A stretch of 64,000 nt of DNA from Candidatus Eiseniibacteriota bacterium (GTDB lineage: Bacteria; Eisenbacteria; RBG-16-71-46; CAZAMP01): contig OZ245046.1 in NCBI GenBank assembly GCA_965224245.1, positions 3,360,001-3,424,000 of the forward strand. The letters are read 5' to 3'. Under the pieces are notes generated by a model. That model was not told the DNA's origin. It worked only from the letters and a program-made list of their open reading frames with translations, and searched no databases. How positions within the stretch are numbered: the stretch's first letter is position 1; every line of letters starts with the position of its first letter. Of this stretch, positions 1 to 19,759 are shown piece by piece. Made by a program: the position numbers and the translations under genes.

Positions 1-1902
1 GACTCGGACCACGCGTACACGTGGTCCGGAGGATCGACGGACTGGAGCGCCGCGCGCGGCGCCTCGTACGGGTACGACGTCACGCACTACGACCTCGACC
101 TCGCGGTCGACTTCGGCGTCCCCGAGATCATTGCGACCGGCACGATGACGGTCACCATCACCGAGGCCGACCTCACGTCGCTCACCGTCGACCTGAACGA
201 CATGATGACGGTCACCGGCGTCACGGTGGACGGTCTGTCGCGTTTCTACACCACGGCCGAGGAGACGATCTCGATCACGCTCCCCTCGGCACCCGCGATC
301 GGCGCCGAGCTGGTGGTCGCGGTCTCGTATCGAGGCCGCCCGTCCGAGGTCGGGACCAAGTCGATGCGATTCCGGACACACGGCGGGATCCCGGTGGTCT
401 ACACCCTCAGCACGCCGTTCTCCAACGCGAGCGTGACCGTGATCCCGATCAGCCACTACTGGCGTCCCTGCAAGGACGACCCCACCGACAAGAGCACGTA
501 CTCGGCCTCGCTCACGGTGCCCGACACGATGACCGGCGTCACGAACGGCGTCATGATCAGCGAGACCGACAACCTCGACGGCACCAAGACCTTCGTCTGG
601 GAGCACGGCTATCCGATCGCGCCCTATCTGATCACGATCGGGATCACGAACTACGTCGAGATCACCGACACGTACGTCGGCGACACCCACACGCTCCCGA
701 TCTCGCACTACGCGTATCCGGAACTCGTGACCCAGGCCACGTCCGACTGGGCGCCCGTCACGTCGCATCTGGCCGCGTTCGAGGATCGGTTCGGGACGTT
801 TCCGTTCACCGGTGAGCGCTACGGCATGTACATGATCGAGCCGGGTCCGGCGGTGGAGCACCAGACCATGGTGTCGTACCCGCGCAACATCGTGGACGGC
901 TCGGGCGACTTCGAGTACATCGTCGCGCACGAGCTGGTGCACATGTGGTTCGGCGACGAGATCACGGTCGCCGACTGGAAGGACGTCTGGCTCTCCGAGG
1001 GCTTTGCGTCGTACGGGGAGGCGATCTACGAGGAGTCGGTGGGCGGTGCGACCGCGCTCCGCGACTACATGATGGCCATGGACGCGGGACCCTACGCGGG
1101 CACGATGTACGACCCGCCCTACGTGTGGCACGCCATCGTGTACGACAAGGGCGCATGGGTCCTGCACATGCTCCGGCACGTCCTCGGCGACGCCGGGTTC
1201 GACCAGCTCATCGCCGACTATCGCGCCGCGCACGCCGGCGGCAACGTGGTCACGACCGACTTCATCGCCGTGGCCGAGGGCGTCCACGGCAGCAGCCTCT
1301 CCTGGTTCTTCGATCCCTGGGTGTACGAGGAAGGCCGTCCGTCGTACGCGTACAGCTGGATCCCCGAGACGACCGCCGGGCTCGCGGTGTCGCTGACGCT
1401 GGATCAGGTCCAGTCGCTGGATCAGCCCACGTACACGATGCCGATCGACGTCGAGATCCAGACCGCGTCGGGCACCGAGCAGCACGTGATCATGAACGAC
1501 ATGCGATCGCAGTCGTTCTCGATCCCGGTCGGGGATACGCCGATCGCGGTGACGCTCGACCCGGGCCGCTGGATCCTGGGCTCGTTCGTCGAGGAGCCGG
1601 TCGGCGTCGCCACCGGACCGGCCGCGCCCTGGGGCGTGGATGCACCGGTCCCGAACCCCGCGTTCGGTGCGACGACGATCTCGTTCCTGACCGCGACGCC
1701 GGGGCGCGTGGCGGTCCGCGTCTTCGACGTCGCGGGACGCCACGTCCGGACGCTCACCAGCGAGGTGCTGTCGGCAGGACCGCACACGGTGACCTGGGAC
1801 GGTCGCGACCGTCACGGCGAGCCGGTGGCCGCGGGCTCGTATCGCGTTCGCCTCGTCGGACCCGACGGCGTTGACCACGCATCCGTGCTCGTGGTTCGCT
1901 GA
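1..1902 (+). CDS. M1 family zinc aminopeptidase with C-terminal FlgD-Ig/T9SS-CTD-like domain (5' partial)
   Basis: Frame is open from base 1 (…YGYDVTHYDLDLAVDF…, a typical M1 N-terminus). Motifs: HELVHMWFG…WLSEGFA (HEXXH-x18-E) and YDKGAWVLHMLR. Tail PNP…VRVFDVAGRHVRTL…VTWDGRD…GSYRVRL. Confidence 0.9.
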   Translation, partial: DSDHAYTWSGGSTDWSAARGASYGYDVTHYDLDLAVDFGVPEIIATGTMTVTITEADLTSLTVDLNDMMTVTGVTVDGLSRFYTTAEETISITLPSAPAIGAELVVAVSYRGRPSEVGTKSMRFRTHGGIPVVYTLSTPFSNASVTVIPISHYWRPCKDDPTDKSTYSASLTVPDTMTGVTNGVMISETDNLDGTKTFVWEHGYPIAPYLITIGITNYVEITDTYVGDTHTLPISHYAYPELVTQATSDWAPVTSHLAAFEDRFGTFPFTGERYGMYMIEPGPAVEHQTMVSYPRNIVDGSGDFEYIVAHELVHMWFGDEITVADWKDVWLSEGFASYGEAIYEESVGGATALRDYMMAMDAGPYAGTMYDPPYVWHAIVYDKGAWVLHMLRHVLGDAGFDQLIADYRAAHAGGNVVTTDFIAVAEGVHGSSLSWFFDPWVYEEGRPSYAYSWIPETTAGLAVSLTLDQVQSLDQPTYTMPIDVEIQTASGTEQHVIMNDMRSQSFSIPVGDTPIAVTLDPGRWILGSFVEEPVGVATGPAAPWGVDAPVPNPAFGATTISFLTATPGRVAVRVFDVAGRHVRTLTSEVLSAGPHTVTWDGRDRHGEPVAAGSYRVRLVGPDGVDHASVLVVR

Positions 1903-1913
1903 TCGTCCATCGG

Positions 1914-1938
1914 CCCGGCCGGCCCTCGGCCGGCCGGG
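1914..1938. terminator. Perfect 11-bp hairpin between convergent genes; possible bidirectional terminator
   Basis: CCCGGCCGGCC-CTC-GGCCGGCCGGG; no U tract. Confidence 0.45.
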
Positions 1939-3264
1939 TCAGCGACGTTCGCGTAGCGCGTCCTCGAGGTGGCGATAGGGCTCGGTCAGCTCACCCCGGT
2001 GCACGATCATCGCGCCGGCGATCTCGGGCGGCAGCGTGGAGACACCACCGGGCCCGGCGAAGGCGGGATCCTCCAGAGCGCGCGCCAGGTCGGGCATGAA
2101 CGGCGCCAGGGCGTCTCCGAAGGCGCGCGACGCGTCCACGGGAAGCTCGGCGGGCAGGAAGTCCACGGCCAGGATCACCGGACCGTTCCCGTCGATCCCC
2201 TCCTCGATCATCTCGGTGTCCACGTCGTACACGTAGACTGGGGCATCGGGCTCGGTCGCCTTCACCGTGAACTCGATCGCCCCCTCGATGTCGAGCGAGA
2301 CGTCTCCGATGACGCGGAGGCGGGGCGTGTCTCCCGAGTACAGCCGCGCCGCGGATTCGCGCGTCATGAGCCTCGGACAACCGGGCTCCCAGTACAGCGC
2401 GGTGATGAGAACCGTCAGCCAGGGAAGGTAGCGCTCGAACGTGGACTCGTGGCCGGCGGGATCGGCCAGGTAGCGCTCCCACGTGAACGGACCGCCGTCG
2501 CCGGGCGCGAGCCAGTCTCCGCCGTCGAACACGACCTGATAGACGCGACGGTCGATCGGCACCGAGCCCGGTCCCGCGAGGAGCTGGGCCGGCGTCAGGG
2601 TGCGCGCACCCAGCGCATTCAGGATCTCCTGCGCGCCGCCGGACACGCCGCCGGCGCCGGCGATGCCGATGACGAGCGGGCACAGCTCGGGCGGCAGTCC
2701 ATCCCGGGCGATGCGTTCGCCCGCGTCGCGGATCGCGTGCAGCGCATCGGCGAGGTCGTCGTACTGATGGGCCTGCCGGATTCGCTCGAACGGGTTCGGC
2801 GTTCCCTCCGACGCGAGTCGCCGCCCGAGCGCCCACAGCGAGTCGATCGTGCCCGCGAGGCCGGCGAAACGACTGAACCCGATCAGCCGCCGATCGGCCG
2901 CGTCCACGATGCGCTCGTAGTCGATCAGGGACGCGCCGCGATCGAGCAACGCGCGCAGCATCGGCATGCTCGTGGGCTGCCCCTTGATGGTGTGGGAGAA
3001 GAACGCGTACGTGGTGTCGGATCGGAACGCGTCGGGCGGGATCTCCTTCACCCCCAGCACGAGTGCGCAGCCGTCGAGTCGCTCGGAGAGCGTCGCGCCG
3101 GCGCGGACGTATGCCTCGTCGTCGAACGCGCGCTTGACGGACGGCTCGATCGCGATCGAGAGCCCGTGGTCCTGTACGAGCGCCTTGACGTGGCGAGGGG
3201 TCAGCGGCGCTCGGCGCTCCCAGTCACTCTTGGTCTCGCGTCGGATGCCGATCCGTAGGGTCAT
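1939..3264 (-). CDS. Lysine-ketoglutarate reductase/saccharopine dehydrogenase-like protein (AlaDh/PNT fold)
   Basis: MTLRIGIRRETKSDWERRAPLTP, LGVKEIP, FFSHTIKGQ, LIDYERI, GAGGVSGGA, AVDFLPAELP. The start overlaps the upstream stop (ATGA at 3261-3264). Confidence 0.85.
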   Translation of the reverse strand: MTLRIGIRRETKSDWERRAPLTPRHVKALVQDHGLSIAIEPSVKRAFDDEAYVRAGATLSERLDGCALVLGVKEIPPDAFRSDTTYAFFSHTIKGQPTSMPMLRALLDRGASLIDYERIVDAADRRLIGFSRFAGLAGTIDSLWALGRRLASEGTPNPFERIRQAHQYDDLADALHAIRDAGERIARDGLPPELCPLVIGIAGAGGVSGGAQEILNALGARTLTPAQLLAGPGSVPIDRRVYQVVFDGGDWLAPGDGGPFTWERYLADPAGHESTFERYLPWLTVLITALYWEPGCPRLMTRESAARLYSGDTPRLRVIGDVSLDIEGAIEFTVKATEPDAPVYVYDVDTEMIEEGIDGNGPVILAVDFLPAELPVDASRAFGDALAPFMPDLARALEDPAFAGPGGVSTLPPEIAGAMIVHRGELTEPYRHLEDALRERR

Positions 3265-12369: not shown

Positions 12370-14940
12370 TCAGGGCACCCGTACGAACGACGTCGTCGTC
12401 GACTCCGAGCCCGCCTGGATCCGGACGACGTACACGCCCGCCGGGGTCGGCCGGCCACGAGCGTCCCGTCCGTCCCATCCGAGCGTCCGCGCGCCCGCGA
12501 GGACACGCCCGTCGACGAGCGTGGCCACGGCGCGTCCGGCGACGTCGTAGATGCTCACCGTCACCGGCCGCGGCGGCTCGGGAACGTGGACGCGAATCGC
12601 ATCGGACGGACCGAAGGGATTCGGTACGACACCGACGAGCCGCGCGCCGCCGGGTGCGCTCGTCGACGGCGGGGGATCGATCGGCGTGACGGGCTCCTGG
12701 TAGGCGCGAACCGACACGTCGTCGAGCGCCGCCTCGACGATGTCCTCGCCGCCATCGTCGGACGCCGCGAAACGCAGCCGGACCTGGCTCGTGAGCGAGA
12801 TCATGTCGGAGAGCTCGCGATCCACGCGCTCCCACCAGCGCCGGTTCTCCCCCAGACGCTCGATCTCGATCCACGTCGCGCCGCCGTCCGGAGAGGCGCT
12901 CACGACCCACTCGTCGCTTCCGGACCCCGCGAAGGCGCTGTTCGAAAACCAGCGATGGTAGGTGAGCCGCGCGTTCGGCTGGCCGCTCAGGTCGAGCGGC
13001 GGGCTCTCGAGCGTCGTTCGTCCGCCGTCGACGTCCGCCTCGCCGATCGGCGATCCGGCGGGCGCGTTGCCGGTGACGTAGCACAGAACGGCGTCGTCGC
13101 CCGGCGTGTGATCGAACTCGGGCTGCACCGGTCGCCCGAGCTCCTGCCCGGTGGCGATGGGATCCGCGAGCGTCCAGAGCCCCGACGTCGCACCGTCGCC
13201 GGGAACCCGCGCGCGCCAGCCGTACGTCGACTCGAAGTCGTCCTCGAAGAGCGTCGTGATCGTGCCCACGAAGAACGCGTGCGTCTCCCCGGGTGCGCCC
13301 GGTGGATCGGTCGTCCGGTTGCTCTCGACGTCGACCGCGACGAGGTAGTACTCGACCCAGCGTCCGGCCGGCTTTGCGGGGATGAAGGCCTCGTACACGT
13401 CGCCGGCTCCGGTGGCGGTCAGCGCCGACCGTTCGCTCACTCCGTCGACCGCGTAGTGGACGTGGAGCGAGTCCGCATCCAGCGGCTCCGGGGACCGGAT
13501 GCGTGCCACCACTCGATACGGTGCCGACGTGTCCTCGGTGTCCGGAAGGGGCTCGTGTCCGATCGACAGGCGGAGCAGGTCGGCCAGCGTGGCCAGGAAC
13601 GCCACGCCGAGCCGCACCGTCTGGTGGGCGAGGAGCGGCTGGTTGTAGCTCGGCCCCACCCGGTCCCGGTTCGTGTGGATGAAGGGCGAGGGCCTCTGGC
13701 CGTCCTCGAAGAACATGACCGCGGGATACCCGCCCTGCCAGAACGACGCATGGTCGCTCGTGCCGGCCGGGATGTGCCCGTCCTCGAGAGGAAGGCCCGG
13801 CACGTACGTCGCGCCGACCTCGACCATCAGATCGCGCAGCGCGGGATGGAGCGCGTCGGAGATGATCGTCATGTCGAGATCGGACGTCTCGGAGTAGCCG
13901 ATCATGTCGGCGTTCAGCATGGCCACGACGTCGAGGTCCCGGCCGATCGCGATCTCGTGCACCCACGCCTGGCTTCCGAGAAGACCCAGCTCCTCGGCTC
14001 CGAACGCGATGAAGACGAGCGTGCGCGCGTACTGCTCGCGCGAGAGCACGCGCGCGGCCTCGAGGACGAGCGCGGTTCCCGACGCGTTGTCGTCGGCCCC
14101 GGGGGCGTCGGCGGTCGAGCCCGCCGCGTACGAGTCGTAGTGCGCGCCCACGATCACGATCTCGTCGGGACGGGTGACGCCGGGGATCACGGCAACCACG
14201 TTGGGCGCGTACACGCCGTCCGTCCAGTCGTGGACTCCGACGCTGTCGATGCCGTAGGAGGCCAGCTCCGCGCGGACGTACTCGGCCGCGGCGAAGCCGC
14301 CCTCGGAGGGAGCGTAGCGAGTCCCGAAGTCCTGGAGGCGCGCGACGTGGGAGTCGATCCGTGCACCGGAGACCGAGTCGGTCATCGCCTCGATCGCGGG
14401 AACGAGCGCGACGCGTGCCGGCCAGGACGGCGGCATGTCACGAGGCGGTCGACACGGTGCCAGCGTCAGGCGAGCGACCTCGAAGCCGGCGTCGAGTACG
14501 TCTCGCAGGCGCGATTCCGGAACGTCGACGACTGCTCGTCCACGATCGGCCCACAAGACACGTGAGCGTGAGGCGAGCTCGTCGACCCGCCACGGCGGGA
14601 CGGGAGAGACGACGTAGTACGTGGCCTCCTCCAGGTGTCGATCGATCTCGAGCGATGGATGTCCGGCGGCGCGCAGACGATCGACGTCGTCCTCGCTCGC
14701 GACCGCGAGGAGAAAGTCGCCCGCGTTCCACACGACGACGATGCCACGGTCGACGAGGTCGGCGAGCGTGCTCGGCGTGTCGGCATCGACGACGACCAAT
14801 CGCGAGTCGAGCACTCGGGCGTCGATCGCTGGCGAGTCGATCGGTCGCGAATCGGCGAAGCGGATGTCCTTCGCGTGCGAGGCCGATGGCATCGACACGA
14901 GGAGCGTGAGCAGCACGGCAGTCGGAAGGGGCGCTTGCAT
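12370..14940 (-). CDS. M28 family metallopeptidase with C-terminal FlgD-Ig/CTD-like domain
   Basis: Signal peptide; GAHYDS, GADDNASG, FGAEELGLLGS, NADMIG, SDHASF; tail PNPFG…IYDVAGRAVATL…WDGRD…GVYVVR. Confidence 0.9.
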   Translation of the reverse strand: MQAPLPTAVLLTLLVSMPSASHAKDIRFADSRPIDSPAIDARVLDSRLVVVDADTPSTLADLVDRGIVVVWNAGDFLLAVASEDDVDRLRAAGHPSLEIDRHLEEATYYVVSPVPPWRVDELASRSRVLWADRGRAVVDVPESRLRDVLDAGFEVARLTLAPCRPPRDMPPSWPARVALVPAIEAMTDSVSGARIDSHVARLQDFGTRYAPSEGGFAAAEYVRAELASYGIDSVGVHDWTDGVYAPNVVAVIPGVTRPDEIVIVGAHYDSYAAGSTADAPGADDNASGTALVLEAARVLSREQYARTLVFIAFGAEELGLLGSQAWVHEIAIGRDLDVVAMLNADMIGYSETSDLDMTIISDALHPALRDLMVEVGATYVPGLPLEDGHIPAGTSDHASFWQGGYPAVMFFEDGQRPSPFIHTNRDRVGPSYNQPLLAHQTVRLGVAFLATLADLLRLSIGHEPLPDTEDTSAPYRVVARIRSPEPLDADSLHVHYAVDGVSERSALTATGAGDVYEAFIPAKPAGRWVEYYLVAVDVESNRTTDPPGAPGETHAFFVGTITTLFEDDFESTYGWRARVPGDGATSGLWTLADPIATGQELGRPVQPEFDHTPGDDAVLCYVTGNAPAGSPIGEADVDGGRTTLESPPLDLSGQPNARLTYHRWFSNSAFAGSGSDEWVVSASPDGGATWIEIERLGENRRWWERVDRELSDMISLTSQVRLRFAASDDGGEDIVEAALDDVSVRAYQEPVTPIDPPPSTSAPGGARLVGVVPNPFGPSDAIRVHVPEPPRPVTVSIYDVAGRAVATLVDGRVLAGARTLGWDGRDARGRPTPAGVYVVRIQAGSESTTTSFVRVP

Positions 14941-15127
14941 GGACGGCTCCCACGTGGGTGAACCCGATGATGGCCCCCGGACAAGTCCGTGTTCGAGTGT
15001 ACCCGGAGGAGTCCATCGATCGCCAGCGCGACCGACGTCGCCCACGTCAGGCGAGTGCTGCTAGGATGGAGACAGGCGCGCCGGGGCGATGTGAAGCGTG
15101 TTCGACGGAGCCACCAGGAGGTCGACC

Positions 15128-16447: not shown

Positions 16448-17146
16448 GTGAGACAGAAGCCGTGGCAGAAGAAGGTGATTCGCCAGCTACCAACGTACGG
16501 GGGGCGGCTCGTCATCTTCTGCGGTCAGGGCAACGAGCCGATGCTCAGCGTCCTGCGATCGCACGTGCGGAGCTCCTCGGGAATCTGCCTGACGCTGGCG
16601 AAGAAGTGGATGTGCGAGCTGAGCAACGGACGCGACTTCTGGGACTGGATGATGCCCGGAGGTCAGCTGAACGCGGCCGCGGCCGCGAGCATCACGATCC
16701 AGCACGTCGACAAGGGACGGGCCGACGTCCCCGAGACGACCTCGGGTCAGCGGGCGCCGAGCCACTCCGGGACCACCGATGCGCAGTTCCTCGCGTTCTA
16801 CGGTCAGCTCGAGTCGTCCAAGCTGGTCATTCCGGGCGGCGCCAGCGGGTTCGGAAACCCTCCGGCGGGCGAAGTCCCCGCGGCGCTCGGCGCCGTCGTC
16901 CGGGACAAGCGACCTCCGGCCCAGGCCTATGCCCTGTTCAACATGCACGCCGACGGAGCGTCCGGACACTCGGTCGCCGCCGAGGCGATGAACTACGGCA
17001 TGGTCAGGTTCTACGACCCCAACATCGGAGAGATGGTCTTCGAGCGCGCGGACAGCTTCGCGGGCTGGATGGCCGACGTGCTCGGCAGCGAGGTCTACCA
17101 GACGTACACGGCCTTCAACTACCGGTGGTACAGCCGCTCGAGCTGA
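16448..17146 (+). CDS. YopT/AvrPphB-like (peptidase C58-type) cysteine protease domain protein
   Basis: Q…GICLTLAKKW (Cys), GHSVAA (His), FYDPNIGEMVF (Asp); order and spacing match the family. Confidence 0.72.
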   Translation: MRQKPWQKKVIRQLPTYGGRLVIFCGQGNEPMLSVLRSHVRSSSGICLTLAKKWMCELSNGRDFWDWMMPGGQLNAAAAASITIQHVDKGRADVPETTSGQRAPSHSGTTDAQFLAFYGQLESSKLVIPGGASGFGNPPAGEVPAALGAVVRDKRPPAQAYALFNMHADGASGHSVAAEAMNYGMVRFYDPNIGEMVFERADSFAGWMADVLGSEVYQTYTAFNYRWYSRSS

Positions 17147-17627
17147 TCGGGTTCCCGGCTGTACATGCCGGGGTCAGAACGCATTCTCCGGGGGAAGGGC
17201 CGGTCTCTGCATTCTCGGTCCGCTTCCGGCGAGCATCGACGTGGCGTTCTCATCGGCGAACGTGTACCCGGGTACACGTTCGATCAGCATCAAACGCCAC
17301 CAGAATGGTGGGTTGCATCGCAACCGTCAGGAAAGTGAAAGATCGGCCCTCCGGAATCACCCGTTGCCATTTCGGTAGGATCAGAAGGGCCGCCGACGGA
17401 GAGAGCCGCATGGCCGTCGAGGTTCGCTGGCGTCCCAACCGCGAGCCTGGTCATCAAGTGTCGGAGCATGCCGGCACACGTTGCATCGCGCACATCCACT
17501 TCGAGTCCACCCGCAGGGTGAAGCGATGCAGGACGGAACCATCGGGCCGCCTCGCGATGGTAGTAAGAGCAGGTCGGACGAAAGCAAACGGCAGCGGACG
17601 GCTTCGACTGACTGGCAGGCGTTGAGA

Positions 17628-17704
17628 TGGAGGGGACTCCGGGGGTTGAACCCGGGACCTCCAGATCCACAATCTGGCGCTCTAACCAGCTGAGCTAAGT
17701 CCCC
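17628..17704 (-). tRNA. tRNA-His (GUG), CCA encoded
   Basis: Full cloverleaf: acceptor GGGGACT/AGTCCCC, D arm GCTC/GAGC, anticodon arm CCAGA-TTGTGGA-TCTGG, T arm CCGGG-TTCAACC-CCCGG, then T-CCA. Confidence 0.97.
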
Positions 17705-19098
17705 AAGATCGATCTGACCGCGTCGACGACCGCGCCCGGTGCGACCGTCGACTGCGTGCGCGCACGCATGTCCTTCACCTGCACCTGTCCCGCTTCGGCG
17801 TCGTCGGGTCCGATGATCACGACCACCGGGACGCCCTGCCGCGCGGCGTACGAGATCTGTGCCTTGAAGGAGGTGTCTTCGCCCACGTAGATCGACGTGG
17901 CAACACCCGCGCGCCGCAGCTCGCCCGCGAGTCGTTGGTACCCCGGAACGAGCTCCGAGGCGAAGTTGACGATCATCACCTCGGTTACGGTGCGGGCGGA
18001 ATCTAGCATACCGAGGGCTTCCATTCCCGCGAAAAGCCGATCCACCCCGACCGACGTTCCCGTGCACGGCACGGCGGCGTCGGGCATGAACCGGCCGATC
18101 AGCGTGTCGTACCGTCCGCCCGAGTACACCGTCCCGATCTCGCGGCAGTCGTCGAGCACCGCCTCCCAGATGGGACCGGTGTAGTAGTCGAGCCCGCGCG
18201 CGATCGTCGGGTCGATCCGCCAGTCCGAGTCCGGAACGCCCGCGTCCCGTACGTACGCGGCGATGCGCCGCAGCTCGTCGAGCCCCTCACGCCCCAGCGG
18301 AACGTCGCCGAGAAACGTCTCGAGGCCGTCGAGCACGGCACCGATGTCGCCCTCGATCCCGAGGTAGCGCTCGACGAGCCCAATCTGTTCCGGGCTCAGC
18401 CCGAGTCCTCCGCCGTCACCCCCGGGGTCGCCCGAGCTCGCGGGTCGGGCCAGCTCGGCCAGGACGCCCTCGAGACCATCCTTGTCGATCTTGTCGAGCA
18501 CGCGGATCACCGCCGCGACCTCGTCGGGCGAACGGTCGAAGCCGCCCTTGGTGGCGAGCCCGTTCAGGATCTTCCGGTTGTTGACGCGAATCGTGAAGCT
18601 CGTGAAACCGAGCTCGCGGAGCACGGTGCTCATGATCACGATCATCTCGGCGTCGGCGAGCATGTCGCTCGTCCCCACCACGTCCGCGTCGAACTGCAGG
18701 AACTCGCGGAAGCGTCCGAGCTGCGGCTTCTCGCCACGCCACACCGCACCGATCTGGTAACGCTTGAACGGCTTCGGCACGTCCGGGTTCGCGGCCACCA
18801 CGCGGGCCAGCGGCACCGTCAGATCGAACCGGAGCGCGACCTTCTGGTTGGCCTCCTTCGGCTCGCGGCCCAGCCACCCGCCGCCGCGCGAGACGAATGT
18901 CCGGTAGATCAGCTTCTGGGTGTCGGTCTCGCCGCCCATCAGGACGCCCAGTCGCTCGACGGCCGGCGTCTCCAGCGGATCGAACCCGAATCGCTCGTAC
19001 ACGCGCCGGACGCGATCGATGATCGCCATCCGCTGGACCTGTCGGTCCGGCAGGTAGTCGCGGAACCCTCCCGCCAGGAGGGGCTTCACCTTGCTCAC
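17695..19098 (-). CDS. hisS: Histidyl-tRNA synthetase
   Basis: GFRDYLP, LRFDLTVPLAR, WRGEKPQLGRFREFLQFDAD (motif 2), IARGLDYYTG, GGRYD, C-terminal anticodon-binding domain. Confidence 0.97.
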   Translation of the reverse strand: MSKVKPLLAGGFRDYLPDRQVQRMAIIDRVRRVYERFGFDPLETPAVERLGVLMGGETDTQKLIYRTFVSRGGGWLGREPKEANQKVALRFDLTVPLARVVAANPDVPKPFKRYQIGAVWRGEKPQLGRFREFLQFDADVVGTSDMLADAEMIVIMSTVLRELGFTSFTIRVNNRKILNGLATKGGFDRSPDEVAAVIRVLDKIDKDGLEGVLAELARPASSGDPGGDGGGLGLSPEQIGLVERYLGIEGDIGAVLDGLETFLGDVPLGREGLDELRRIAAYVRDAGVPDSDWRIDPTIARGLDYYTGPIWEAVLDDCREIGTVYSGGRYDTLIGRFMPDAAVPCTGTSVGVDRLFAGMEALGMLDSARTVTEVMIVNFASELVPGYQRLAGELRRAGVATSIYVGEDTSFKAQISYAARQGVPVVVIIGPDDAEAGQVQVKDMRARTQSTVAPGAVVDAVRSILGT

Positions 19099-19182
19099 GT
19101 CGGTTCGCTCCGGTTGACCGGCCCCGGGGCCGACCCCGTCCGGTTCGCGGCCCCGTCGATCCGTGGGGTTTTGGAGCGGAGG

Positions 19183-19211
19183 AGAATAGGGCGGCCCCCC
19201 GGGAACGTCAA
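19183..19211 (-). promoter_or_regulatory. Sigma70-like promoter of hisS
   Basis: TTGACG-17 nt-TATTCT on the minus strand, about 85 nt upstream of the GTG start. Confidence 0.6.
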
Positions 19212-19246
19212 CTCCGAGCGGGCCACTTGAGGGACCCGGGTCCGCG

Positions 19247-19759
19247 TCAGGGTATCTCCTCGACGGGACCGTGCGTCTCGAGCCACTCCATCAGCATCGT
19301 GTAGACCTCGAAGTAGGTCGCACGGCGGACGGGGTGGGTGTGGTCGAGGAGCGCCTTCGGATCGATCCACGAGAACTCGTCGAACTCCTCGGAGACGGCG
19401 TCTTCCTCAATCTCACCCTCGAGCCTCAGAACGAACCAGATGTGGGATTGGCCGTCGTAGAGGCCGGTCTCCGACCCGCCGGCCCAGACGTAGCGCGTGC
19501 GCCGGGGAAGCAGGCCGAGGATCTTCACCCGCCGCGTGCCCAGCTCCTCGTACAGCTCGCGGAGCACGGCCTCCTCGGCATTCTCGTTCTCGTCCATCCC
19601 CCCCTGGGGGAACTGCCAGTGCGGGGACTCGGAGTCGTTGCGCCGCCCGACGAGGAGCCGACCCGCGGCGTCGAACACGAGCGCGCCCACGGCCGGACGG
19701 AAGCTGGGGCCGCCCTTGCCGAAGTGTGACTCGTCGCTGTTCGTCAGATCCGCCGCCAT
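19247..19759 (-). CDS. rppH: Nudix hydrolase, RNA pyrophosphohydrolase (RppH)-like
   Basis: FRPAVG, WQFPQGGMDENENAEEAVLRELYEELG (Nudix box), YDGQSHIWF, EFDEFSW. Confidence 0.78.
   Translation of the reverse strand: MAADLTNSDESHFGKGGPSFRPAVGALVFDAAGRLLVGRRNDSESPHWQFPQGGMDENENAEEAVLRELYEELGTRRVKILGLLPRRTRYVWAGGSETGLYDGQSHIWFVLRLEGEIEEDAVSEEFDEFSWIDPKALLDHTHPVRRATYFEVYTMLMEWLETHGPVEEIP

Follow-up and report, generated by a model that had tools for sequence, protein, structure and literature searches.

Histidine tRNAs are described as sharing a near-universal mark, a guanosine at position -1 (G-1), one small alphaproteobacterial clade being excepted (PMC9976931, PMC3245924). The 64,000-nucleotide stretch analysed here, referred to as the window (contig OZ245046.1, positions 3,360,001 to 3,424,000, of the Candidatus Eiseniibacteriota assembly GCA_965224245.1), contains a tRNA-His gene with T at -1 and T at the discriminator position 73, and raises the question of how such a tRNA could serve for histidine and how a bacterium came to possess it. 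We consider it probable that this is a working histidine tRNA used without G-1, and that a linked, G-1-independent pair of hisS (encoding histidyl-tRNA synthetase, HisRS) and tRNA-His has replaced the canonical pair, probably by an old horizontal transfer.

The window was analysed using ARAGORN, which found exactly one tRNA, tRNA-His(gtg) at 17628-17704. The Rfam tRNA family RF00005 matched 17631-17704 with 70.2 bits against a gathering score of 29, and our own tRNA-His covariance model, R1, scored the gene at 94.5 bits. Element by element, the minus strand reads ...gatctt (leader), GGGGACU (acceptor), UA, GCUC AGCUGGUUA GAGC (D-arm), G, CCAGA UUGUGGA UCUGG (anticodon arm), AGGUC (variable loop, 5 nt), CCGGG UUCAACC CCCGG (T-arm), AGUCCCC (acceptor), U and CCA. 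The D-loop has 9 nt, including an extra, U20a-like U, and G1 faces C72. The base pairs of the acceptor stem, seven in number, are all Watson-Crick and, together with the U8-A9 anchor, they make the register unambiguous. The encoded G-1 pairing with C73 by which a bacterial tRNA-His gene is normally recognised is absent, T standing at both positions. The three features on which a preliminary description had remarked (T at -1, U73 and G1:C72) are thus borne out by the sequence and by both tRNA searches.

That description had named a read error at 17631 or 17705 as a possible source of the pattern, and the available contigs agree with the assembly at both bases. At 17631 the Logan contigs of X1 and X3 show no differences; an X4 contig also spans this base, and its one differing letter is not listed there. 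At 17705 the X1 contig shows no difference. Logan contigs are assembled sequences rather than raw reads and these come from two samples of one study, possibly including the source sample itself, so that the support they lend is weak. Short contigs and loose ends at 17648-17704 (X1-X5), which belong to canonical tRNA-His genes of other organisms, were not used, nor was a single 47-nt 'joint' in X5.

The genome comprises 6.94 Mb in 27 contigs and is 97.39% complete, and the locus lies within a contig of 6.45 Mb. Over the whole genome ARAGORN made 55 calls, two of them labelled His, and RF00005 gave 45 matches. The second call labelled tRNA-His (97 nt, C1:3072399-3072495) is absent from the 45 and was treated as a false positive. 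The gene in the window is the only credible tRNA-His in the genome, and the second copy that the preliminary description had allowed for was found by neither program in credible form. The TIGR00442 profile detected a single hisS above its cut-off, the other three matches in the genome scoring at most 26.8 bits. About ten of the ARAGORN calls (e.g. that at C1:3072399-3072495 and those at 4148720-4148816 and 5242977-5243073) are 80-97 nt long, lack CCA and have no RF00005 match; these are probably spurious, in a genome whose guanine plus cytosine (GC) content is high. Another call, tRNA-SeC(tca) at C1:2266365-2266462, suggests that the organism may use selenocysteine.

The usual state of tRNA-His in the same class was established with model R1. 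It matched in all 151 class genomes searched, although it also matches other tRNAs; the tRNA-His sequence itself was read in 71 of them (30 + 40 loci + G037), and G014 and the present genome bring the number to 73. G-1 and C73 were found in 70 of these 73 genomes (68 parsed by script and two by eye owing to an acceptor mismatch), the exceptions being this genome, G014 and G070. This survey of positions -1 and 73, which the preliminary description had proposed, shows that the pattern seen here is unusual and not a matter of chance. As to the class itself, ribosomal protein L2 of the present genome has 72-75% identity to proteins with the NCBI labels Candidatus Eisenbacteria, Krumholzibacteria and Latescibacterota, and G070 encodes a HisRS matching at 100% identity one labelled Candidatus Eisenbacteria; the class is therefore referred to as Eisenbacteria-like.

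The class also preserves the site that the canonical gene occupies. It follows the tRNA genes Lys(ctt)-Pro(tgg)-Arg(tct) in loci L006, L008, L011, L015 and L020, lies between Pro and Arg in L009 and follows Pro in L010. The present genome has the Lys-Pro-Arg cluster at C1:3198117-3199123; beyond Arg lie a hairpin and a gene on the other strand, and a His tRNA is missing. The canonical hisS of two class genomes, G008 and G039 (466-472 bits), has an aspS-like neighbour; the homologue of this neighbour is present here at C1:3.0249-3.0263 Mb, and the genome-wide TIGR00442 search gave no hisS match beside it. In G001, the only genome of the same family (97% complete), the Lys-Pro-Arg cluster (L189) is also without His, and its bins contain neither hisS (TIGR00442, E<=1e-20) nor tRNA-His. 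The absence of both would be expected if the two genes were linked in G001 on one unbinned contig.

It might be supposed that a canonical tRNA-His and hisS lie in the unassembled 3% of the genome, and that the pair in the window is accessory or specialised. A completeness of 97.39% over 27 contigs allows this, and draft assemblies often miss tRNA genes. However, the place where the class keeps its canonical tRNA-His is present in the assembly without the gene, the 26 small contigs hold no tRNA, and the essential synthetase is present once, as the hisS of the window. The joint absence of hisS, tRNA-His and the His of the cluster from G001 also speaks against a missing pair, which we regard as extremely improbable.

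The hisS gene overlaps the tRNA gene by 10 nt, both being on the minus strand (Table 1). Its product, P0001, scores about 351 bits (350.9-351.2) with TIGR00442 against a cut-off of 286.75 and consists of tRNA-synt_His (PF13393) and HGTP_anticodon (PF03129) domains. It is 26-27% identical to the canonical HisRS of the class (G008, G039), 40-50% identical to the enzymes of the candidate phyla radiation (CPR, Patescibacteria) and 35-40% identical to those of alphaproteobacteria. Its closest relatives are nine metagenomic proteins, P0003-P0011 (59-72%); below these, at 50% identity or less, come mainly the HisRS of Patescibacteria/CPR. A search for the DNA of the nine gave nothing above 47% identity among genome contigs and, among metagenomes, one N-terminal fragment of 81% identity (L167) without the tRNA end. 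The best matches of P0001 in the PDB were 3net, 6nhi and human cytosolic HisRS, and the E. coli and T. thermophilus enzymes matched only in part. P0001 therefore belongs to the eukaryote/archaea-like HisRS subfamily.

Two trees were built. FastTree was run on 110 rows (from 127, with rows below 380 aa and duplicates removed and 14 database proteins added), and a quick IQ-TREE tree on 49 rows selected from these. They agree on both groupings. P0001 and its nine relatives form a clade of their own (support 100), which joins P0116/P0020 and the CPR enzymes in one larger group (95 in FastTree, 83 in IQ-TREE) that contains a polytomy. The alphaproteobacterial HisRS (L199-L203) join the enzymes of Ignavibacteriota, Bacteroidota and G014 (96 and 99), forming the sister of P0001's group, and P0001 falls outside the alphaproteobacterial clade in both trees. 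Chromids of Paracoccus, Cereibacter, Sinorhizobium and Methylobacterium, from the orders of the known G-1-less alphaproteobacteria, carry hisS genes whose products are 35-40% identical to P0001. A phage or plasmid carrier was considered; two weak matches to phage records (33-37% identity) were obtained and the plasmid matches were chromids (of alphaproteobacteria and others), so that no vehicle was identified.

The other two exceptions in the class differ from this locus and from each other. In G014 (family f14; L182) the tRNA-His (G014:C71:268-345), with T at -1, G1:U72 and A73, is followed after 46 nt by a hisS (391-1686) whose product shares 41-43% identity with P0001; in G039, the other genome of family f14, hisS is canonical (466 bits). 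G014 appears to have undergone a replacement of its own, the second in the class and of the alphaproteobacterial/Ignavibacteriota type. In G070 (family f15; L244, G070:C10:63000-71000) the order is that of the present locus, hisS (5429-4062, minus strand; its product P0116 shares 48% identity with P0001) and then, across a 33-nt gap, a tRNA-His (4029-3957, minus strand); this tRNA has G at -1 as well as G1:C72 and A73, its CCA not being encoded, and G020, from the same genus, has a canonical G-1:C73 tRNA-His. The three exceptional tRNAs thus have U73 (this genome), G1:U72 and A73 in a gene upstream of hisS (G014), and A73 in a gene downstream of it (G070). Families f1 and f15 may share one acquisition or have made two. 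A different combination is found in family f16 (L183, L204-L217; e.g. G042:C55), in which 14 genomes have canonical G-1:C73 tRNAs with a 9-nt D-loop (8 nt in G085). The HisRS of G042 is a long-branch member of the eukaryote/archaea-like subfamily, 42% identical to P0001, which keeps Arg in its motif-2 loop; belonging to the subfamily is therefore not enough to predict that G-1 has been lost.

These comparisons also bear on whether any transfer took place. The native pair could have diverged in place or moved within the genome, its likeness to CPR reflecting common descent of an old type of HisRS inside this candidate phylum. Subfamily HisRS does occur in other families of the class (f16 G042, f15 G070 and f14 G014), the GC of hisS is native-like and the key node of the tree is unresolved. 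The identity of the tRNA body to CPR tRNAs (72-79%) does not exceed that to the tRNAs of the class (up to 82%); at 72-82% identity to every group it is uninformative on origin. Against divergence in place stand the canonical tRNA in 70 of the 73 class genomes, the canonical hisS of G008 and G039, the fact that the three exceptions represent three HisRS lineages as well as three tRNA types, the empty ancestral slot of tRNA-His, and the lack of a hisS match beside the homologue of the aspS-like neighbour. A tRNA fused to a divergent, CPR-like hisS, together with an empty ancestral slot, speaks for an exchange of the whole pair and against mutation of the native tRNA, and we regard an origin without transfer as unlikely. 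A tRNA-Gly, which here also has U73, was dropped as a source of the tRNA-His because the acceptor stems differ.

The residues of P0001 that would meet the 5' end of the tRNA were compared with those of the T. thermophilus complex, for which it is reported that Arg7, Arg115 and Arg122 hold G-1 (PMC4357726). In the alignment, two of these three arginines are replaced in P0001 (Table 1). Around the glycines of the G-1 pocket (T. thermophilus Gly72-Gly73) the alignment is very gappy. The change from Arg to Lys before the motif-2 proline is common to both G-1-less clades, and Arg is kept there where the partner tRNA has G-1:C73 (in the canonical enzymes and those of G042 and L123); the G-1-less CPR loci L122 and L128 keep Arg too, so the correlation is not strict. 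The Arg7-to-Gly and Arg115-to-Lys replacements lend indirect support to charging that may not depend on G-1.

Table 1 Features of the tRNA-His/hisS locus (coordinates are positions in the window)
Feature	Position	Strand	Evidence or remark
tRNA-His(GUG), positions 1-73	17704-17631	minus	ARAGORN, RF00005, tRNA-His model R1, sequence
Encoded 3' CCA	17628-17630	minus	sequence
Position -1, T	17705	minus	middle base of hisS Leu465 (TTG)
Discriminator base 73, U	17631	minus	sequence and contig cover
Anticodon G34-U35-G36	17670-17668	minus	
hisS, 467 aa (P0001), the only HisRS gene	17695-19098	minus	TIGR00442, Pfam
hisS/tRNA overlap, 10 nt	17695-17704	minus	
Sole sigma-70-like promoter match	19183-19211	minus	about 85 nt upstream of the hisS start
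Motif-2 loop WRGEKPQLGRFREF, residues 120-133	18700-18741	minus	alignment
T. thermophilus Arg7: Gly in P0001 (in AGGFRD)			replaced
T. thermophilus Arg115: Lys124 in P0001			replaced
T. thermophilus Arg122: Arg131 in P0001			kept
T. thermophilus Lys118: Leu127 in P0001			Leu in 10 of 10 clade members; Ala or Ser in CPR

A G-1 that is not encoded could still be added. The preliminary description had suggested that a Thg1-like protein (TLP) adds G-1 opposite U73; more broadly, Thg1, a TLP or some other enzyme might add G or another nucleotide at -1 after transcription, giving a canonical mature 5' end. Addition after transcription is described as the standard eukaryotic route, and some bacteria are said to carry Thg1-like proteins (PMC3061083, PMC3245924). 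A search of the genome with the Thg1 profile PF04446 gave no match at E<=1, although at 97.39% completeness the gene could be missing from the assembly. The archaeal-type enzyme, the type reported in bacteria, is templated and would add A, not G, opposite U73 (PMC3245924). The loss of two of the three arginines that clamp G-1, and the finding that related CPR cassettes are mostly without G-1 too, also argue against addition. The suggestion thus finds no support, and we think it very unlikely that a nucleotide is added at -1.

How the tRNA is made can be proposed from the arrangement of the locus. The last two codons of hisS (G466 and T467) and its stop coincide with tRNA positions 2-10, the stop codon TAG being U8-A9-G10. 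Six of the ten proteins of the clade end in (G/S)T, as expected of the same overlap of stop codon and tRNA; it would then be conserved in these six, and the residue preceding (G/S)T (L, S or A) would imply T or C at -1, never G. The promoter scan gave one sigma-70-like match, against 0.2 expected, and none between hisS and the tRNA or within the 3' end of hisS. This is a match to the consensus, which may not be the host's promoter type, but the position of the only match before hisS fits co-transcription of hisS and the tRNA. An Rfam search for a leader or riboswitch over 17000-19700 gave the tRNA only, and no leader with His codons was seen in the 146-nt spacer upstream of hisS.

Most likely, therefore, tRNA-His is co-transcribed with hisS. 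RNase P would then cut between U-1 and G+1, U at -1 being the leader base preferred by bacterial RNase P. Because U-1 cannot pair with U73, the 8-bp acceptor stem cannot form, and cleavage at +1 is expected; it is an 8-bp stem that is reported to make bacterial RNase P cut tRNA-His at -1 (PMC3245924). The genome has a type-A RNase P RNA (245.6 bits). The tRNA with its 7-bp stem would be charged by the adjacent HisRS, which appears to be from a G-1-independent branch of the eukaryote/archaea-like subfamily. Its identity would presumably come from the GUG anticodon together with acceptor features (G1:C72 and U73) and the enlarged D-loop. By analogy with Caulobacter, the anticodon is likely to be the main identity element; there, anticodon changes are reported to cost 91- to 1000-fold and U72C 91-fold (PMC3064791).

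The pair is a linked cassette of a kind common in CPR/Patescibacteria, which displaced the ancestral canonical pair, probably by horizontal transfer long ago. The preliminary description had also proposed an independent loss of G-1 with a new identity set. This stands in so far as there is no G-1, the set is not the alphaproteobacterial one and the organism lies outside the known clade; as for the route, replacement of the pair is indicated and not simple loss.

Linked loci in other bacteria were collected using the alignment of the ten close proteins as the query, which gave 53 genome and 64 metagenome loci, or 119 with G014 and G042. A tRNA-His was present in the fetched DNA of 60 of the 119, in three arrangements. 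In 25 loci (two truncated) the tRNA lies 36-1265 nt, mostly 36-265 nt, upstream of hisS and has G1:U72, A73 and a 9-nt D-loop; the titles name Ignavibacteriota, Bacteroidota and one Acidobacteriota, and G014 belongs here. In 33 of the 60, mostly CPR, the tRNA lies 19-102 nt downstream of hisS and has G1:C72 with A73 (22 loci) or C73 (11). In the remaining two loci a canonical G-1:C73 tRNA-His is on the strand opposite hisS. When the rows were sorted manually by arrangement, the downstream type comprised 23 distinct sequences (16 with A73 and seven with C73), four of which have G at -1 (two facing A73 and two facing C73). With the two opposite-strand genes there are 25 distinct G1:C72 sequences, and -1 is G in six (two facing A73 and four facing C73). 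None of the other 60 tRNA-His genes of related loci has U73; an apparent 'T73' in L103 arises from misalignment, the tRNA there being truncated where the contig ends. In the CPR-like metagenome contig L122 the tRNA-His (1611-1688) lies between two hisS-like stretches (tblastn pieces, 71-3125), which may be a tandem hisS-tRNA-hisS.

Several points weigh against a replaced, G-1-independent pair. No RNA runs covering the locus were found, the mature 5' end and the charging of the tRNA are predictions, and the genome is 97% and not 100% complete. Having a HisRS of this subfamily is in itself no proof of independence of G-1, as family f16 (with the G042 HisRS) and the CPR loci L067/L123 and L116 pair such enzymes with G-1:C73 tRNAs. 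U73 has been read in this genome only, the nine closest homologues (59-72%) being known as proteins. Nor is U73 a sole or unique mark of histidine, since the genome also has T73 in its CCA-encoding tRNAs for Gly (three genes), Cys and Thr (three genes); C73 occurs in none of the CCA-encoding tRNAs. Finally, the node joining P0001's clade to CPR is a polytomy with moderate support (83) under the better model, and is compatible with more than one donor and direction of transfer.

A further proposal is possible, although we consider it doubtful. The locus may represent a third natural set of histidine identity elements in bacteria (no G-1, G1:C72 and U73), in which the clade-specific Leu127 has co-evolved with U73 and which is orthogonal to both the canonical and the alphaproteobacterial pairs. 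In the same proposal, release of the tRNA by RNase P leaves the hisS mRNA without a stop, so that each transcript would give either mature tRNA-His or HisRS at the expense of the other, an inverse coupling. As the hisS stop is formed by tRNA positions 8-10, RNase P cleavage would remove the stop codon; the coupling itself is speculative.

The GC of hisS (0.66-0.69) equals that of its surroundings and the locus is part of the 6.45-Mb contig, so it is not a recent insert, contamination or a binning artefact. The neighbouring open reading frames (ORFs) matched no Pfam or NCBIfam family except for one aminopeptidase with a type IX secretion system (T9SS) tail. This 891-aa ORF (12370-15045, minus strand) combines a LapA-like aminopeptidase core with a sorting tail of T9SS type A (TIGR04183, 26.8 bits), which fits an organism of the FCB (Fibrobacteres-Chlorobi-Bacteroidetes) group.

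This locus and those related to it suggest that histidine systems without G-1 are much more widespread than the one small clade. They seem to travel as linked enzyme-tRNA gene pairs and to be able to displace the canonical pair in an unrelated lineage. Three exceptions with three tRNA types in one class provide a natural experiment for studying how cells can exchange an essential identity rule and survive. As U73 without G-1 has been reported only in trypanosomes, a bacterial case would offer an easily expressed system for finding what replaces G-1, and such pairs are candidates for orthogonal translation tools. A literature search, with most subscription journals outside its scope, found no bacterial case outside the alphaproteobacteria: a tRNA-His lacking G-1 is described neither for CPR nor for Eisenbacteria-like bacteria, and none combined with U73 is described for bacteria. 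It also found no paper on the tRNA identity of the CPR hisS-tRNA-His arrangement.

Among known systems, the alphaproteobacterial clade is the one presented as the bacterial exception to G-1 (PMC9976931, PMC3245924, PMC7590224), and its set is given as G1:U72, A73 and a 9-nt D-loop with an extra U20a (PMC3064791). The present tRNA resembles these Delta-G-1 tRNAs (of Caulobacter crescentus, Rhizobiales, Rhodobacterales and others) in lacking an encoded G-1 and in its 9-nt D-loop with an extra U. In both cases enzyme and tRNA co-vary, and the enzymes share the broad eukaryote/archaea-like subfamily and Lys in place of Arg before the motif-2 proline. In contrast, the tRNA here has G1:C72 and U73, and P0001 belongs to another clade, with GEKPQLG in the motif-2 loop where the alphaproteobacterial enzymes have NEKPGPG. 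The annotation of the alphaproteobacterial locus L200 lists no tRNA beside hisS, no tRNA search having been run on L199, L200, L201 and L203.

The CPR cassettes are similar in that hisS is followed immediately, on the same strand, by a tRNA-His that has G1:C72 and an acceptor stem starting with GGG. Their enzymes group with P0001 in the trees, share the motif WRGEKPQxGRFREF and have the Arg7 equivalent replaced (by Gly or Ala in CPR). They differ in that their tRNAs have A73 or C73 and never U73, in the gap between hisS and tRNA where there is an overlap here, in the Ala or Ser at the motif-2 residue that is Leu throughout P0001's own clade, and in an identity of only 40-50%.

The discriminator is shared with Trypanosoma brucei, whose tRNA-His is reported to lack G-1 and to have U73, with no Thg1; the authors describe this U73 as 'not found in other annotated tRNAHis' and as insufficient alone as an identity element (PMC4338351). 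The likeness extends to all three features (no G-1, no Thg1 and U73), but that system is eukaryotic. The HisRS of T. brucei and T. cruzi (3hri, 3hrk) match P0001 at about E 1e-34, compared with about 1e-55 for the human enzyme, and the shared U73 is therefore convergent.

With the canonical system of E. coli and T. thermophilus the locus has in common the GUG anticodon, G1:C72, the encoded CCA and a class IIa HisRS with an HGTP domain. Unlike that system, it has no G-1:C73 pair, and hence neither an 8-bp stem nor a reason for RNase P to cut at -1, and its enzyme, at 26-27% identity to the canonical HisRS of the same class, has both the Arg7 and the Arg115 equivalents replaced.

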